Part shown: piece by piece, positions 42,494 through 49,666 of the stretch
Layout: each line of letters starts with the position of its first letter
How positions within the stretch are numbered: the stretch's first letter is position 1
From: an uncultured Oscillospiraceae bacterium
GTDB taxonomy: Bacteria; Bacillota; Clostridia; Oscillospirales; Oscillospiraceae
Assembly (NCBI GenBank): GCA_905233385.1
Contig: CAJOEH010000022.1
Span: forward strand, 846 to 64,845
Direction of reading: 5' to 3'
DNA: 64,000 nt
Program-made: the position numbers and the translations under genes
Notes under the pieces: model-generated
Database searches by the model: none
What the model saw: only the letters and a program-made list of their open reading frames with translations
Told to the model about the DNA's origin: nothing

Positions 42494-43768
42494 TTATCTT
42501 CCCGCCGCAGACAAATAGGCGGCAAAGGAATAAAGATCGGTATAGCGCGAGACGTAGTAGCGATTGACGAGGAACGGATCGGACGAGGTGTTGTACAGGC
42601 CGCCGTTCATCTTGATGCCGAACATATAATACTGCGGTCCGAGCTCAAGCGTAAAATCGTTGTATCTGCCGGTCGGATAGCACAGCACGATGGGCTCCTT
42701 GCCCGCAATGCGGGTGATGATCTTCTTGGACTGCGCCAGTTCGTACATCGTATCGTCGTAGCCCAGGCCGTCCAGATCCGGGTGGGTGTAGGTGTGGCTC
42801 TGGATGGACACGTAGCCGGAGGTGGACATCTCGCGGATCTGCTTTTCCGTCGCCATGTGCTGCTGGTTGTTGGGCGCGCTGCCGATGACGAAGATCGTCG
42901 CCTTGACGCCGTACTTCTTCAGCAGCGGGAACAGATTCGTATAGTTGTCCTCATAGCCGTCGTCGAAGGTCAGGATCACGGGCTTGTCGTAGTCTTCCAG
43001 GTGCGACAGGTCCTCGAACCAAATCGCGTCGTAGCCGTTGTCGACGATGTAGGCAAGCTGCGCCTCCATGTCCGACGGGCTGACGAACAACTCGTCGATG
43101 CTGCTCCATATCTCGTCGCTGACGGCGTGGTACATCAGGACCGGCACGTTCACGCCCTGCGGGATCTCAAAGCGCCGCGCGGACGGCGTGTAGTAGTGCA
43201 CGCCGGTGTCCTCGTCGACGTACAGCGGGCAGTCCATCGCCGCGATCAGCTCGTCGAACGGCAGATACAGCACGTGCACATCGGCAGGCTGGCTGCCGCC
43301 GTCGGGATCGGCAGGGCCGCCGTCAAACCCGACAGCGGGCGCAACGACGCCTTCGATCTGCCTGCCGTTGATGCTCACGGCGGTATCGGTCTCTTCAAAG
43401 CTGTCGATGCCGTAGAGCTTCAGCGACACGTTCTCGAAATACAGCTCCAGAGCGTTCGCGAAGTCGTTCCGCTCGATCATGCGCACACCGTCGATGAAAT
43501 ACGTTGAAACGCGGAAGCCGTTGAGGACGGAAACCTGCTCGTCCGGCACGATCTCGATCACCGGCTCGGTCGGAAGCTCCTCGGTCGTCGCGGGCTCCGT
43601 GGCCGCCTGCGTCGCCTCTGTCGGGAGGGCGCTCTCGGTCGCGGACTCCGTCGGCGCTTCGGTCGGGTCGGTCTGCGGCGACGGCTGTTTCCCCGTAAAG
43701 TACAGGACCGCCGCGGCGATCAGCAGGACGGCAAGCAAAACAGAAAGGATAACGATCGCTTTTTTCAT
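42494..43768 (-). CDS. Membrane-anchored polysaccharide deacetylase (CE4)
   Basis: N-terminal TM and T/E/P-rich linker; PVLMYH, LTFDDGY, QSHTYTH and CYPTG motifs. Confidence 0.9.
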   Translation of the reverse strand: MKKAIVILSVLLAVLLIAAAVLYFTGKQPSPQTDPTEAPTESATESALPTEATQAATEPATTEELPTEPVIEIVPDEQVSVLNGFRVSTYFIDGVRMIERNDFANALELYFENVSLKLYGIDSFEETDTAVSINGRQIEGVVAPAVGFDGGPADPDGGSQPADVHVLYLPFDELIAAMDCPLYVDEDTGVHYYTPSARRFEIPQGVNVPVLMYHAVSDEIWSSIDELFVSPSDMEAQLAYIVDNGYDAIWFEDLSHLEDYDKPVILTFDDGYEDNYTNLFPLLKKYGVKATIFVIGSAPNNQQHMATEKQIREMSTSGYVSIQSHTYTHPDLDGLGYDDTMYELAQSKKIITRIAGKEPIVLCYPTGRYNDFTLELGPQYYMFGIKMNGGLYNTSSDPFLVNRYYVSRYTDLYSFAAYLSAAGR

Positions 43769-43774
43769 GCCGGT

Positions 43775-44230
43775 TTACTTCTCTTCCAGGATCTTGTTCA
43801 GTTCGTGCATGAAGCTGTTGATGTCCTTGAACTGGCGGTAGACCGAGGCGAAACGCACGTAGGCGACCTCGTCGAGCGGCTTGAGGCGTTCCATGACCAG
43901 CTCGCCGATCTTGCCGGTGCTGACCTCGCGCTCAAGGGAGTTCTGGACGATCTGCTCGATCTCCGAGACCGCCGCTTCCAGATCCGCCATCGCGACCGGT
44001 CGCTTCTCGCAGGCGCGCACCATGCCGCGCAGGATCTTGTTGCGGTCAAACGGCTCGCGGCTGTTGTCCTTCTTCACCACGACGACCGGCAGGCTTTCGA
44101 CGGTCTCGTAGGTGGTGAAGCGCTTCTGGCAGGACAGGCACTCTCTGCGGCGGCGGATGCTGCTGCCGTCCTCGGAGTGGCGGGAGTCGACGACCTTGCT
44201 TTCCTGATAACCACAATACGGGCACTTCAT
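43775..44230 (-). CDS. nrdR: Transcriptional repressor NrdR
   Basis: [20 protein letters not shown] cone and [13 protein letters not shown]. Confidence 0.97.
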
Positions 44231-44248
44231 AGCAATTTCTCCTTTTTC

Positions 44249-44264
44249 GCACAATATCTAGCTA
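44249..44264. promoter_or_regulatory. Candidate NrdR box upstream of nrdR
   Basis: GCACAATATCTAGCTA matches all strongly conserved positions of acaCwAtATaTwGtgt. Confidence 0.45.
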
Positions 44265-44301
44265 TATATTATCAGAGAAGCCACAAATTGTCTACCCCTT
44301 T

Positions 44302-44577
44302 TTACGAATTATTCAGTTCGTCCTCCGCGACCTCCCGCAGGGTGCAGGGCGTCACGGCGTTCCGGGACAGCCGCTTAAGGAAGTCCCGGATCCGTCCGTA
44401 GGACGCGGTGAGGTCGCGCACCGCCGCGCGTTCTTTTTCCCTGCCGCGGCGCATGACGATCTCCGCGCCGTAGCGCGTGATCCCGTCCGTTTTTTCTTCC
44501 GTGATCCGGTACAGCAGCGCGGCCTCCTCGCCGTTCTCGCAGCGGACGCGCCGCCGCGCAAAGGTTCTTTTTGTCAT
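44302..44577 (-). CDS. DUF6514-like small protein
   Basis: LLYRI..YGAEI..VRDLT..LSRNAVTPCTLREVAED pattern; GGAGG RBS. Confidence 0.7.
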   Translation of the reverse strand: MTKRTFARRRVRCENGEEAALLYRITEEKTDGITRYGAEIVMRRGREKERAAVRDLTASYGRIRDFLKRLSRNAVTPCTLREVAEDELNNS

Positions 44578-44618
44578 AGTACATTCCTCCCCTTAACAGC
44601 CGCCGTGCGTTCCGTTCC

Positions 44619-44862
44619 GTGTCATTGCGAGACTGCCTACAGGGCAGTCGTGGCAATCTGTGCGTCTCGACGCGGGACATATATCCGATCGACGCTGATA
44701 CGCAAGGATTGTCATTGCCCGCTTCTCGCGGGCAATCCGTGTGTATCGATGCGAGACGCTCTTCATAATTCGTAACAGATTCCATTCCTGCAACGGACAG
44801 ATTGCCCGAACAAGTCGGGCAATGACACCCCTGAGAGACTTCCGCAATGAGCATTGCGCATT
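44619..44862. repeat. Tandem TGTC-tagged elements plus heptamers
   Basis: GTGTCATTGCGAG..GTGGCAATC, then TGTCATTGCCCG..CGGGCAATGACAC, then GCAATGAGCATTGCGCATTG. Confidence 0.78.
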
Positions 44863-45144
44863 GTGATCGCGCGTTCGGCGGTACATCCGATTGAAGCACA
44901 CTTCCGCGCTGAATTCTATTCTTTTCGCCCGTCAAAATTCGACTTCCTCCGCTGATACCGACGCATAAAGTTCGGATTCCGCCGGAAATACCGAAAACGC
45001 CCCGCCGCGCGGCGGCGTTTTCTTCTCTCCGCCTGTCGCATTCTGTCGGGAAAGATATTTTTTCGCAGGTTTTTCGGGGAAATGATTGCGCAGTTTCTGC
45101 CGTTATGATATAATTGTTGTATCTTTTGAAAAGGGAGGACTCCT

Positions 45145-46719
45145 ATGAAACTGAAAACTGTGCTCTGGGGCGGCGACAAGCCCGGCAGAGCCGTAACCCT
45201 CGGCATTCAGCACGTCTTCGCCATGTTCGGCTCCACGGTCCTCGTTCCCGCGCTGACCGGTCTGAACCCGGCGGTCACCCTGTTCTGCATGGGCGTCGGC
45301 ACGCTGATCTTCCACCTGGTCACCAAGGGCGTCGTGCCCGCCTTTATGGGCTCCAGCTTCTCGTTTATCGCCTCCATCTGCGCCGTCGCGGCGAAGTGCG
45401 GCGGCGAAACGGCCGACTTTGCCCCCTACGTCGGCTGGGGCATCATGGCGTCCGGCGTCTTGTACCTGATCCTGTCGCTTCTGGTCAAGCTGCTCGGCAC
45501 CAAGCGCATCACCTCGTTCTTCCCGCCCATCGTCACGGGCTGTATGATCATCATCATCGGCATGATGCTCGCGCCGACCGCGATGAGCAACATCACCACC
45601 GTCCGCGGCGAAGTTCCGGCGAACGCGACCGTCGTCGTCAAAGAGGGCGACGCGCAGAGCGATCCCTTCGTCTATTGCGATTACACCTATGACGCCGATC
45701 ACGGCTACACCGTCTCCGGCTGGATCGAGTCGAAGTATCTGACGCCGAAAGCCGATTACGAGGCCGACGAGGTCAACGGTATCGCCGCCTATACCAACAG
45801 CGGCGCGGATTATATCGTCGCGAACGTGAAGGGCGTTTCGATGCGCAGTGAAGCTGACGCGGACGCCGCAAGCGTCTCAGGCACGGCCCTGTGGAAAAAC
45901 TGGGTCGTCGCGATCGTCACGATCGCCGTCATCGTCATCGTCATGTTCTTCTTCCGCGGCTTCTGGAAACTCATCCCGATCCTCTTCGGCATCGTCGCAG
46001 GCTATCTCACCTCGCTTGCGCTCGGCATGGTCAATACGCAGCCGCTCGCGGAGGCGAGCTGGTTCGCCCTGCCGAAGTTCACGCCGTTCTTCCAGGGGAC
46101 GAACTGGGGTCTGGTCGTCTTCGCGATCACCATGATCGCCCCGATCTCCATCGTCACCTTCGTTGAGCACGTCGGCGACATCACCGCCAACGGCGCCGTC
46201 ACCGGCCACAACTACATCGAGGATCCCGGCCTGCACCGCACCCTGCTCGGCTGCGGCCTCGCCTCCGTCTTCTCCGGCGGCATGGGCGGTCCCGCCGCGA
46301 CCACCTACTCCGAGAACACCGGCGTGCTGGCCGCGACCCGCAACTACAACCCCGCGACCCTTCGGATCGCCGCCGTTTTCGCCATCATTCTTTCCCTGTT
46401 CGGGAAGGTCTCCGGCCTGCTCGGCAGCATCCCCTCGGCCGTCATGGGCGGCGTCTCCGTCGTCCTGTTCGGCATGATCGCCTCGGTCGGTCTGCGGATG
46501 CTCGTTGAGAACCACGTGGACTTCACCAAGAGCTACAACCTGATCATCGCCGCCGTCATGCTGGTCATCGGCCTCGGCCTGTCCGGCGGCATCACCGTCG
46601 GCAGCGTCACGGTCAGCGGCACCGCGATCGCGGCTGTCCTCGGCGTCATCCTCGCGAAGATCCTCCCGCAGAAGGAGAGCGAGGAGCGGCAGCGGGAAAA
46701 GGCCGCCGCAAAGAAATAA
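45145..46719 (+). CDS. uraA: NCS2/NAT uracil permease with a roughly 100-aa soluble insertion
   Basis: QHVFAMFG, EHVGD and TTYSENTGV motifs; hydrophilic insert at aa about 150-247. Confidence 0.88.
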   Translation: MKLKTVLWGGDKPGRAVTLGIQHVFAMFGSTVLVPALTGLNPAVTLFCMGVGTLIFHLVTKGVVPAFMGSSFSFIASICAVAAKCGGETADFAPYVGWGIMASGVLYLILSLLVKLLGTKRITSFFPPIVTGCMIIIIGMMLAPTAMSNITTVRGEVPANATVVVKEGDAQSDPFVYCDYTYDADHGYTVSGWIESKYLTPKADYEADEVNGIAAYTNSGADYIVANVKGVSMRSEADADAASVSGTALWKNWVVAIVTIAVIVIVMFFFRGFWKLIPILFGIVAGYLTSLALGMVNTQPLAEASWFALPKFTPFFQGTNWGLVVFAITMIAPISIVTFVEHVGDITANGAVTGHNYIEDPGLHRTLLGCGLASVFSGGMGGPAATTYSENTGVLAATRNYNPATLRIAAVFAIILSLFGKVSGLLGSIPSAVMGGVSVVLFGMIASVGLRMLVENHVDFTKSYNLIIAAVMLVIGLGLSGGITVGSVTVSGTAIAAVLGVILAKILPQKESEERQREKAAAKK

Positions 46720-46782
46720 ACGCACGCAGACCGCAGGGGCAGATCGCTCTGCCCCTGCTTGTTTTCGTAAGGAGGTGCTTGT

Positions 46783-47874
46783 ATGGCACTGAAACAGGAA
46801 CGCAACTACGGCATTGATCTTTTGCGCATGGTCGCCATGTTTATGGTGACCGTCCTTCACGTGCTCGGACAGGGCGGCGTGATCGCGCGCGCATATGCCG
46901 GTACGGCCCAATACACGATCACGTGGTTTTTGGAGCTTGCGGCCTTCGGCGCCGTCAATCTCTATGCGCTGATCTCCGGCTACGTCGGCGTGAACGGCAG
47001 ATACAGAGTGAGCAATCTCGCCGTTCTGTGGCTTCAGGTCTTCCTCTATTCTTTCGGCATTGCCGTTGCGTTCGCGATCATCCGCCCGGATGTTATCAGC
47101 GGCTCCGGTCTGCTGGAATACGCTTTCCCCGTGATCACGAAAAAGTACTGGTATTTCTCCGGCTACGTATGTCTCTTCCTCTTTATTCCGTTGCTGAACG
47201 CAGGGATCAACGCACTGAGCAAGCAGGCTCTGCGCCGCATTATGGCAGCCATGTTCCTCGTTTTTTCAGTCGCCGCTTCCATTGCAAGAGAGGAATCGTA
47301 CGATACGTTCATCCTTGTCGCCGGATACAGCGGGCTGTGGCTGATGATCCTGTACGTCTTGGGCGGCTATATACGGAAATACGGCATGTGGGAAAAGATC
47401 CCGCAGCCCGCACTGCTTGCGATCTACTTTGGCTGTACGTTGCTCTCCTACGTATGCAAGCGTTTCATTCCCGGCGCGAAGTTCCCTGCCTCCTACATTT
47501 CTCCGCTGATCCTTCTTGGGAGCGTCGCCCTGCTGCTGTTCTTCTCACGGCTCAGATGCGGCAATATCACAAAGAAGCTCGTCGCGCTCTTTGCTCCTGC
47601 CGCCTTCGGTGTGTACATCATCCATGTCCATCCATTGATCTGGGAGCATATCATGGCGGATCGCTTCGCCTTTATCGCGACGATGCACCCGTTTGTGATG
47701 CGGCTGGTCGTCTTGCTGTGCGCATTCGCAATTTATCTGGTCTGCTCCCTCGTCGATCTGGTCCGCATTCAGCTTTTCAAGCTCCTGCGGATCAAGCAGG
47801 GCTGTCAGGCGTTGGAGAAAAAGCTCTTCAAAGAGGACGAGGAAGAAAAACAAAGGGTCGGGAATCGCAAATAA
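46783..47874 (+). CDS. Acyltransferase-3 (OafA-like) membrane protein
   Basis: RNYGIDLLRMVAMFMVTVLH, VNLYALISGY, YWYFSGY and FGVYIIH motifs. Confidence 0.9.
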   Translation: MALKQERNYGIDLLRMVAMFMVTVLHVLGQGGVIARAYAGTAQYTITWFLELAAFGAVNLYALISGYVGVNGRYRVSNLAVLWLQVFLYSFGIAVAFAIIRPDVISGSGLLEYAFPVITKKYWYFSGYVCLFLFIPLLNAGINALSKQALRRIMAAMFLVFSVAASIAREESYDTFILVAGYSGLWLMILYVLGGYIRKYGMWEKIPQPALLAIYFGCTLLSYVCKRFIPGAKFPASYISPLILLGSVALLLFFSRLRCGNITKKLVALFAPAAFGVYIIHVHPLIWEHIMADRFAFIATMHPFVMRLVVLLCAFAIYLVCSLVDLVRIQLFKLLRIKQGCQALEKKLFKEDEEEKQRVGNRK

Positions 47875-47980
47875 GCTGAGGAGAGTCGAACGCAAGCCGT
47901 CTCTGCGCGGCTCTTTTCGGTCCTTTTCGGCTTGTTGTCCTTGCCTTGCGTCAGCAAGGCTGCGTCCGCCTTCCCTGGCG
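47874..47980. repeat. Second AAGCTGAGGAGAG repeat copy plus palindromic tail
   Basis: Matches 16360-16391; CCTTGC..GCAAGG hairpin. Confidence 0.6.
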
Positions 47981-47983
47981 AAC

Positions 47984-48017
47984 AAAACGGAGACCGCGAA
48001 TACGCGGTCTCCGTTTT
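47984..48017. terminator. Bidirectional terminator
   Basis: AAAACGGAGACCGCG-aata-CGCGGTCTCCGTTTT. Confidence 0.85.
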
Positions 48018-48031
48018 GTTGATTTATCGTT

Positions 48032-49666
48032 TTAGTCTAAGAAATACTGTGCTCCGTCGACGATCACGACTGTATCGTTCTCGATAACAGTGAACTGCAC
48101 GCTGTTGCCCGGCAGGTTGCATTCCAGATCGTTCGTCGGCGTGCTGCCGGGCGGGATCAAAACGCCCTCCTCAAACTCCTGATCATCTTCAAAAGCGATC
48201 GCGGTCGTTGCGTCGTAGACGTCATAGAGCTCGCCGTCGTACATCGCCTGTCCGATCCATTTATAACCGTGGGCGTCCGTCTTTTCAGCAGTCGCGGTCG
48301 GCGGGTCGGCATAGCCGGAGATGTAAAGGTCCTCGTAGATCGTCCGGTAGATCCAGTCGCTGGCGCGCTGCAGATCGTAGACGAAGTAGACGTACTGCTC
48401 CTTGCCGAGCTCGCCCGCCCAGCAGTCCATGTGCTCCATCACGGCGGAGGACTCGACCGTATAGCGGTTCTGGACCGCCTCCAGCCCGATCCCGAGCAGT
48501 TCGTCCGCGCTCAGCGAGGTCGTGCACATGCCGAAGCAGGTGCGGATCAGCGCGGGATAGTCCGACATCGGCATCTGGCGGATCTTGTCCATCATGGCAA
48601 GGACCAGCTTTCGCTGCCGGCCGGCGCGGTTGATCTCGCTGTCAGAGCGGTCACGGGCATACCGGTAGACCGCCTGATAGCCGTTCATGTGGCTGTTGTA
48701 TTTCCACTGGTCGTCGCCCTCCAGCTCGATATCGACGCCGCCGAGCAGATCGACGATATCCTCAAGCTGGGTGATATCCACGGTGATATAGTCCTGGATA
48801 TTCAGCGCGAAGTTGTGGTTGACCGTGCGGACGGCGCCCTGCGGCCCGCCGAAATTGTAGGCGTAGGTGATCCTGGAATAGCTGCCCCACTGCGGCATCA
48901 TCACGTAGGAGTCGCGGCCGATGGAGATCAGCTTGATCTTCTGATGGACGCGGTCGATGGAGAGGATGATGTTGGCGTCCGAGGAGCCGTTGTCGTCCAG
49001 GCCGTACAACATGATATTCGTGATCTGCTCCGCGCCCTCGAGCAGGTAGCTCGGTCCCTCGGGATCGCCGGTGTGCATCTTCTCGTAGGCTTCGGGCGGG
49101 AGGTCCTTGTCCGTCAGGTTTTCAAATTCGATCGCCAGTCCCCTTGCCTGCTCGTCGAGGTCGTCGGGGTTTTCCGTATTCTCCGGCACGGCGTCGCGGA
49201 CGACCTCGCCGTTGTTGATCTTCACGACGTTCAGATCCTCGTCCTTCAGACTGCTGAAGATCTCGTCGTGGTTCAGGTCGCTGAAAATGTACTGATATAC
49301 GTACATCGCGCCGACGCAGATCAGCAGGACCACCAGCGCGATCAGGATCGCGCTGATCGCGAAGCCCTTCCGCTGTTTTTTGAGAAACAGCGTGACGATG
49401 CCGAGCACGAAGCCGATCCCGCCGAGGATCGCGCCGACGGTGATCATCACCTCAAAGATGCTGATGTCCGTGCCGGCAAGCGCCTTGCTGCGGTAGCGCA
49501 GGAAGCCGTAGACGGCCATCGCGGCGAGCAGCAGCAGCGCGGTAAACGCCAGCGCAAACGCGATCACGCCCAGTGTTTTACTGCGCTTGTTTTTCAGTGG
49601 AGGCGCGGTCTCCGTCTCCGCGGGAACCATATCTCTGTCTTTCTCGGGGAATTGATCGAAATCCAT
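48032..49666 (-). CDS. LCP (LytR-CpsA-Psr) family glycopolymer ligase
   Basis: NIMLYGLD..SDANII, SIGRDSYV, AYNFGG, YARDR and RAGRQRKL motifs; three N-terminal TM helices. Confidence 0.88.
   Translation of the reverse strand: MDFDQFPEKDRDMVPAETETAPPLKNKRSKTLGVIAFALAFTALLLLAAMAVYGFLRYRSKALAGTDISIFEVMITVGAILGGIGFVLGIVTLFLKKQRKGFAISAILIALVVLLICVGAMYVYQYIFSDLNHDEIFSSLKDEDLNVVKINNGEVVRDAVPENTENPDDLDEQARGLAIEFENLTDKDLPPEAYEKMHTGDPEGPSYLLEGAEQITNIMLYGLDDNGSSDANIILSIDRVHQKIKLISIGRDSYVMMPQWGSYSRITYAYNFGGPQGAVRTVNHNFALNIQDYITVDITQLEDIVDLLGGVDIELEGDDQWKYNSHMNGYQAVYRYARDRSDSEINRAGRQRKLVLAMMDKIRQMPMSDYPALIRTCFGMCTTSLSADELLGIGLEAVQNRYTVESSAVMEHMDCWAGELGKEQYVYFVYDLQRASDWIYRTIYEDLYISGYADPPTATAEKTDAHGYKWIGQAMYDGELYDVYDATTAIAFEDDQEFEEGVLIPPGSTPTNDLECNLPGNSVQFTVIENDTVVIVDGAQYFLD

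Follow-up and report, generated by a model that had tools for sequence, protein, structure and literature searches.

A UraA-type permease from an uncultured Oscillospiraceae bacterium with a putative circularly permuted, SH3b-derived segment between TM5 and TM6

The stretch analysed here (the window), 64,000 nucleotides of the genome of an uncultured Oscillospiraceae bacterium, encodes a permease of the NCS2 (UraA-type) family whose chain carries an extra segment of 90 amino acids between transmembrane segments (TM) 5 and 6. Our analysis supports a relationship between the sequence of this segment and the bacterial SH3 domain (SH3b; Pfam family SH3_3), with the N-terminal third of the domain placed last. 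The explanation that we favour, and regard as probable, is that of an NCS2 permease into which an SH3_3-derived, permuted segment has been spliced as an optional extracytoplasmic module. The identity of the domain as a permuted SH3b, in which we have considerable confidence, is far better supported than any role for it. The gene and its parts are listed below.

45145..46719, + strand: coding sequence of the NCS2/UraA-type permease, an open frame of 524 codons (524 amino acids plus stop)
45145..45618, + strand: transporter body part 1, TM1-TM5 with the first, native residues of the TM5-TM6 loop (NITTVRGEVP), residues 1-158; aligns with UraA 17-161
45619..45888, + strand: inserted segment, 90 amino acids (residues 159-248), absent from insertless orthologues; from a codon alignment of 26 orthologues
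45613..45747, + strand: putative equivalent of SH3b strands 2-5, VPANATVVVKEG...FVYCDYTYD...YTVSGWIESKYLTP, residues 157-201; aligned by hhalign to SH3_3 columns 21-61
45748..45807, + strand: linker joining the SH3b C-terminus to the SH3b N-terminus, KADYEADEVNGIAAYTNSGA, residues 202-221
45808..45876, + strand: putative counterpart of SH3b strand 1 and of the RT loop's first half, DYIVANVKGVSMRSEADADAASV, residues 222-244; aligned by hhalign to SH3_3 columns 2-20 after permutation
45877..45891, + strand: connector SGTAL into WKNW and TM6; predicted local distance difference test (pLDDT) below 50 in the isolated-domain model
45892..46716, + strand: transporter body part 2, TM6-TM14, residues 250-524; aligns with UraA 158-405

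The transporter body is readily recognised. The permease, the sole UraA-like gene in its genome at E <= 1e-40, matches Pfam Xan_ur_permease (PF00860; E 3e-85, 286.7 bits, cut-off 27) and scores above the curated cut-off of the NCBIfam NCS2 model (TIGR00801; 323.5 bits, cut-off 291.8); both matches are split into two stretches that skip residues ~166-245. Escherichia coli UraA (PDB 3qe7; E 5e-76) likewise aligns in two blocks, query 16-165 with chain 17-161 and query 252-506 with chain 158-405, and therefore some 90-100 residues replace the short TM5-TM6 loop of UraA. This bears out the earlier note on this DNA, which had reported about 100 hydrophilic residues in a UraA permease loop at 45592-45890, coordinates that correspond to I150-L249 to within one base.

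Residues E241 and E290 of UraA are conserved as E341 and E390, and the position of UraA His245 is occupied by D345 (window 46177-46179), an Asp in each of the 26 local orthologues and outgroups, whether they carry the insert or not; we take Asp at this position to be typical of xanthine/uric-acid NCS2 members. The NAT signature of TM10, [Q/E/P]-N-x-G-x-x-x-x-T-[R/K/G], reads ENTGVLAATR at residues 390-399. Most of the 26 orthologues have an identical signature; its last position is R, Q, G or K, and Q, in four rows, lies outside the motif. The transport motifs are identical in insert-bearing and insertless forms. Roles have been assigned to Glu241, His245 and Glu290 of UraA, with His245 implicated in proton coupling (PMC5539350). 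Against the UraA equivalog model (NF007995) the permease, whose triad reads E341/D345/E390, scores 338.4 bits, under the cut-off of 477, and it is therefore assigned to the uracil/xanthine class of NCS2 without naming a substrate. By its sequence the protein appears to be a functional NCS2 (UraA-type, uracil/xanthine class) proton symporter.

Alignment to insertless orthologues fixes the edges of the insert between P158 and L249; the insertless loops read NITT-xVx(G/D)IP-(V/L)WKNW, with a loop start common to both forms. A search limited to residues 148-252 yielded nine further permeases with the same insert (52-82% identity), and at least 44 distinct inserts were eventually collected from independent NCBI, ENA, JGI and Logan assemblies, so that the insert, which the earlier note had proposed to seek in other NCS2 proteins, is not unique to the window. 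These inserts measure 77-107 amino acids on a wider loop cut (100 amino acids, I150-L249, in the window protein). The smallest, at 77-84 amino acids (P0099 and P0101, of 493 amino acids, and P0120, of 503), are without the ~20-residue linker hairpin NGIAAYTNSGADY, and in them the SH3b C-terminus runs nearly straight into the N-terminal strand.

The window insert is hydrophilic and acidic (isoelectric point 4.05; 15 D+E versus 5 K+R). Net charge is -8 to -15 in all 16 inserts measured, compared with -0.3 +/- 2.7 for 32 ordinary SH3_3 domains from the same bacterial family; G, W and Y core positions are kept in 44/44 inserts, and Cys occurs at most once and is conserved in only part of the clade. 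The insert is under purifying selection: in close pairs its ratio of nonsynonymous to synonymous divergence (dN/dS) is 0.12-0.16, versus 0.08-0.12 for the transporter body, with an insert dN 3-5 times that of the body. Synonymous divergence of the insert in close pairs is also 2.5-3 times that of the body (0.84 vs 0.33, 1.53 vs 0.47, and 1.62 vs 0.55); the excess could reflect older alleles, a body made uniform by recombination, or limits on codon choice in the TM segments. An origin as a mobile element or intein was rejected: the boundaries carry no terminal direct or inverted repeats, there is no family match, and G+C content is continuous.

The relationship to SH3b emerges from profile-profile comparison, in which an alignment of the inserts, opened at every circular cut, was compared by hhalign with 32 SH3_3 domains encoded by members of the same bacterial family. 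The insert in its native order matches SH3_3 with a probability of 86.7% (P 4e-6, score 32.3) over 41 columns, confined to SH3_3 columns 21-61; cut in the linker, it matches at 93.5-94% (P ~2e-7, score 38.2-39.0) over 59-60 of 62 columns. The stretch GEVPANATVVVKEG..FVYCDY..VSGWIESKYL aligns to SH3_3 columns 21-61 and YIVANVKGVSMRSEADADAASV to columns 2-20, which reproduces the resemblance, reported earlier by eye, to the C-terminal and then the N-terminal half of an SH3b. The strand order is thus not the canonical one of SH3_3: the C-terminal two thirds come first and the N-terminal third last, and the best score needs a cut at columns 65-85.

Controls for this comparison were clean. Against a score of 38.6, 100 column shuffles averaged 9.9 +/- 2.1 and never exceeded 14.9, and reversing the alignment gave 10.6. 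Of two decoy beta-domain families taken from these genomes, Big_2 reached no more than 19.8 and S1 no more than 9.0 whatever the permutation, and they scored 10.0 and 7.9, respectively, against SH3_3 itself. With a local SH3_3 hidden Markov model (HMM), permuted inserts of the window's clade scored 7-15 bits, the best stretch spanning the artificial junction (HMM positions 3-34); reversed sequences scored below 0 and shuffles at most 5.9.

Stronger matches were obtained with fragments taken across the junctions of tandem SH3_3 arrays, each consisting of the last two thirds of one repeat, the linker, and the first third of the next. In native order, 16 inserts match 32 such fragments at 95.6% (P 1.3e-8, score 45.1) over 66 of 68 columns, and 44 inserts match them at 94.8% (P 5e-8, score 41.8) over the same 66 of 68; column shuffles reach at most 14.6. 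Because the native insert is colinear with the junction fragments from end to end, an out-of-register slice of a tandem array is the simplest origin. These genomes have many tandem SH3_3 arrays, whose repeats stand 4-16 (once 28) residues apart, and the linker of the insert (residues 202-221), modelled at a pLDDT of ~88-90, matches the inter-repeat linker of such arrays; its length is variable, and it is nearly missing from the 493-amino-acid forms of the permease.

On this basis a foreign segment of 90 residues would have been spliced into the outward TM5-TM6 turn, on the gate (scaffold/dimerisation) domain. The segment may have been cut out of register from a tandem SH3b array and captured in frame, and it would close into one complete, circularly permuted SH3b barrel whose new ends, lying in the former RT loop, would be tied to TM5 and TM6. 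The source genome's only SH3_3 domains above the Pfam cut-off are two tandem domains in one 338-amino-acid frame (contig C12, 96704-97060, - strand), and this pair is a possible candidate for the type of donor.

Structure prediction is compatible with such a domain. AlphaFold2, run on the insert alone with a 16-sequence alignment, returned a model with a pLDDT of 83.4 and a predicted template modelling score of 0.73, with strands at insert residues 13-18, 26-34, 39-46, 50-52 and 73-76 and bridges at 82-85 and 94. The corresponding sequences (TVVVKE, FVYCDYTYD, YTVSGWIE, then a short helix, LTP, DYIV and VS.R) form a predicted pattern that agrees with the SH3b order once permuted. The model suggests a confident, compact beta domain; an SH3-type barrel is not confirmed by it.

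Placement of the domain on the transporter is drawn from UraA and NDCBE (SLC4A8) only, because the full-length model proved unusable. An outward position, as the earlier note had proposed from UraA topology, fits the charge distribution under the positive-inside rule (a K/R-rich N-terminus, K/R-rich TM4-5 and TM6-7 turns, and an acidic insert) as well as the extracellular position of extracellular loop 3 (EL3) of NDCBE (PMC8478935). The gate domain of UraA consists of TM5-7 and TM12-14, and TM5/12 touch TM13' of the partner in the dimer (PMC5539350). By analogy, the insert would lie outside the membrane, attached to the static gate domain and close to both the dimer interface and the substrate entrance that TM5 lines.

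The distribution of the insert is patchy. A UraA-like permease occurs in 73 of 151 family genomes and the insert in only 3; within the genus the permease is found in 43 of 55 genomes and the insert in 10 of 55. Insertless orthologues share 86-94% protein identity, and in two pairs with one insertless and one insert-bearing member, G158 with P0009 and G171 with G160, the genes are ~95-96% identical in DNA. The 120 closest proteins mix the two forms from 97% identity downwards, ~35 of them having 493-535 amino acids and the rest 428-446. On a maximum-likelihood tree of the transporter body, built with the insert columns removed, the forms interleave (7 changes by parsimony, of which strongly supported branches force at least 5), and an approximately unbiased test rejects a single insert-bearing clade (p 2e-8). 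Since insert-bearing and insertless alleles alternate among close relatives, the domain is dispensable among natural relatives, and transport would not need it.

Repeated simple deletion was judged an unlikely source of the insertless forms, which share the loop motif xVx(G/D)IP, unlike the left edge of their insert-bearing sisters. The insertless loops resemble each other and not that edge (VVEGIP in G171 vs VHGDFA in G160), and identity between sister pairs falls around the insertion site. The insert of G121 (L003 2612-4192, same genus) is a mosaic: its first half, of the GDFAQD/QQLD type, is 45% identical to G192/G160 and 22% to the window, and its second half, of the NGIxAY type, is 53-61% identical to P0011/G198, a pattern that suggests recombination within the insert. 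From the mutual similarity of insertless loops, the dip in identity and this mosaic we infer allelic replacement; the two forms have probably been swapped between lineages by homologous recombination. The insert tree mostly tracks the body tree.

The permease lies in a conserved neighbourhood (42494-49666) that is shared with three relatives and contains the following genes besides the permease:

42494-43768, - strand: polysaccharide deacetylase
43775-44254, - strand: NrdR
44302-44577, - strand: DUF6514 small protein
46783-47874, + strand: Acyl_transf_3
48032-49666, - strand: LytR_cpsA_psr

Wall-related genes flank the permease and lie on other strands or transcription units. A gap of 567 nucleotides (44578-45144) separates the divergent DUF6514 gene from the permease start; no Rfam family at gathering score, and no PyrR or purine riboswitch match, was found in it. 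An Rfam 'uup' match inside the start of the permease coding sequence (E 0.5) is below gathering score, and the sole Rfam match in the window at that score is a Gut-1 RNA (RF01706; 24679-24756, - strand, 63.3 bits).

Several results weigh against a permuted SH3b in the permease. Pfam and NCBIfam gave no match on the native insert, and among the re-permuted inserts only versions of the window's own sequence matched a Pfam family, SH3_3 (PF08239), at 11.7-12.8 bits (E 0.14-0.32, cut-off 27), the best, with a trimmed junction (E 0.14, 12.8 bits), covering positions 2-53 of 54. Profile searches of PDB sequences with the native and permuted insert returned noise only and no SLC4 match; the native-insert profile, searched against 1.84 billion representatives, found two further permease clusters only and no free-standing relative; and a six-frame search of the 55 genus genomes with the permuted profile returned permeases, two weak matches and no non-permuted parent. 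On inspection the two weak matches were not SH3b. When the insert model was compared with PDB and BFVD by Foldseek, the 50 best matches included no SH3 and the lowest E was 0.5; the full-length protein, modelled by AlphaFold2 from its single sequence, reached a pLDDT of 45. A new small beta fold, unrelated to SH3b and resembling its profile by convergence, would account for the lack of Foldseek matches and of significant Pfam and PDB sequence matches; we consider it very unlikely, given hhalign probabilities of 94-95% across the whole SH3_3 length with specific controls and a predicted strand pattern that agrees with SH3b. Foldseek follows the order of the chain, which puts permuted chains beyond its reach, and it performs poorly on small barrels; its null result therefore leaves the SH3 fold unconfirmed, not refuted. 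The permuted SH3b-like domain of the earlier note is supported as profile homology; its fold is not confirmed, and its score stays under the Pfam threshold. An assembly or annotation artefact (chimeric contig, frameshift or read-through) was rejected at the level of assembled sequence, its probability being negligible: the frame is open in many independent assemblies, the insert is under purifying selection, and G+C content is continuous.

What the domain does is less clear, and the readings considered here (wall or envelope binding, a dimer cap, balancing selection and a passenger) are not strictly exclusive. The most likely role, which we put forward tentatively, is that of an optional extracytoplasmic binding or positioning module in contact with some component of the envelope, perhaps the cell wall, to which the earlier note had proposed that it binds. 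In hydrolases, SH3_3 domains typically serve to bind the wall, and the wall-rich, conserved neighbourhood was counted in favour of this role; set against an ordinary wall-binding SH3b are a chain cut open in the RT loop, so that this loop would face the membrane, an acidity far above that of ordinary SH3_3, close relatives that do without the domain, and the location of the nearby wall genes on other transcription units. The domain might instead act without wall binding, as an EL3-like cap over the gate domains that lends stability to the homodimer or modulates it, or as an acidic vestibule above the entrance for substrate and proton. NDCBE EL3 is a folded domain at the dimer interface, in the same site of the same 7+7 fold (PMC8478935), E. 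coli UraA dimerises through TM5/12/13 (PMC5539350), and every measured insert is strongly negative (-8 to -15), but E. coli UraA and the close relatives dimerise and transport without such a domain (PMC5539350) and the insert has no sequence relation to EL3, and we hold this role to be unlikely.

Similarly doubtful is an exposed, variable module under balancing or frequency-dependent selection, to which phages, bacteriocins or host antibody would attach or which would shield the cell from them; both alleles would then persist and move between species. The interleaving of alleles with and without the domain among close relatives, loop residues that co-vary with the state, the mosaic G121 insert, and the raised dN and dS of the insert are all in keeping with it; the dN/dS of the insert, however, is low (0.12-0.16) and not raised as in an arms race, the insert tree mostly follows that of the body, and phage or defence genes are not adjacent. 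An accidental in-frame capture of tandem SH3b sequence, folding harmlessly on the static gate domain under selection only against misfolding, would explain why the domain is dispensable and repeatedly lost or replaced, at an insertion site that tolerates large loops in related folds, and why no ligand-type residues were identified. Such a passenger would hardly be expected to persist in at least two genera while inserts diverge to as little as 26% identity, with acidity kept in all of the first 16 inserts collected and the G, W and Y core in all 44, and we think it improbable. A broader proposal, to which we also assign a low probability, is that domain-bearing and bare forms are two ancient allelic states, held across this Oscillospiraceae group by balancing selection and passed on by recombination, the domain being a docking site or shield (phage, bacteriocin, host antibody) or a conditional wall tether, and at the same time a natural one-step circular permutant from an out-of-register tandem slice.

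The spliced-in, SH3_3-derived segment of our favoured explanation matters in several respects. Searches of the literature on permuted SH3b, on SH3b in permeases and on NCS2 extracellular domains turned up no such architecture and no natural permuted SH3b, in agreement with the earlier note, which did not recognise it as described; this would be the first NCS2/SLC23-type transporter found in the literature with a (predicted) folded extracytoplasmic domain. The placement of the insert at the SLC4-equivalent loop suggests that the static gate domain of 7+7 elevator transporters generally has a site there that tolerates insertions. The segment would also offer a clean natural case of a circular permutant arising in one step from an off-register slice of tandem repeats put into a loop, parallel to eukaryotic SH3 domains that have been engineered as RT-loop permutants. 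A practical limit is the narrowness of the clade, which comprises some uncultured Oscillospiraceae of the gut; the natural allele pairs at ~95% DNA identity make the function of the domain directly testable by comparing alleles.

Among known systems, E. coli UraA (PDB 3QE7, 5XLS; NCS2/NAT) shares with the permease the 14-TM body, aligned over UraA 17-405, the equivalents of Glu241 and Glu290, and the NAT motif; it differs in that a predicted folded domain of 90 amino acids replaces part of its ~15-residue TM5-TM6 loop and in that His245 is replaced by Asp. The Pfam SH3_3 domains (PF08239) of wall hydrolases from the same family are matched by the insert over the whole domain, with agreement in the core motifs (GW and YL) and in the strand pattern predicted, whereas the insert is circularly permuted, opened in the RT loop, tied at its ends to TM helices, very acidic, and below the Pfam threshold. 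The third comparison is with the Na+-dependent SLC4 transporters NDCBE and NBCe1, for which the earlier note was correct in placing a large extracellular domain at this site: EL3 of NDCBE (residues 621-694, 74 amino acids) lies between TM5 and TM6, is extracellular and folded, and sits at the dimer interface, where it contributes to dimerisation (PMC8478935). The insert is of similar size, and its transporter has the same 7+7 inverted-repeat fold, in which it occupies the homologous turn between TM5 and TM6. EL3, in contrast, is alpha/beta, disulfide-bonded, glycosylated and eukaryotic, and its four conserved cysteines are missing from the insert, which appears to be an optional bacterial SH3b derivative that has only its position in common with EL3.

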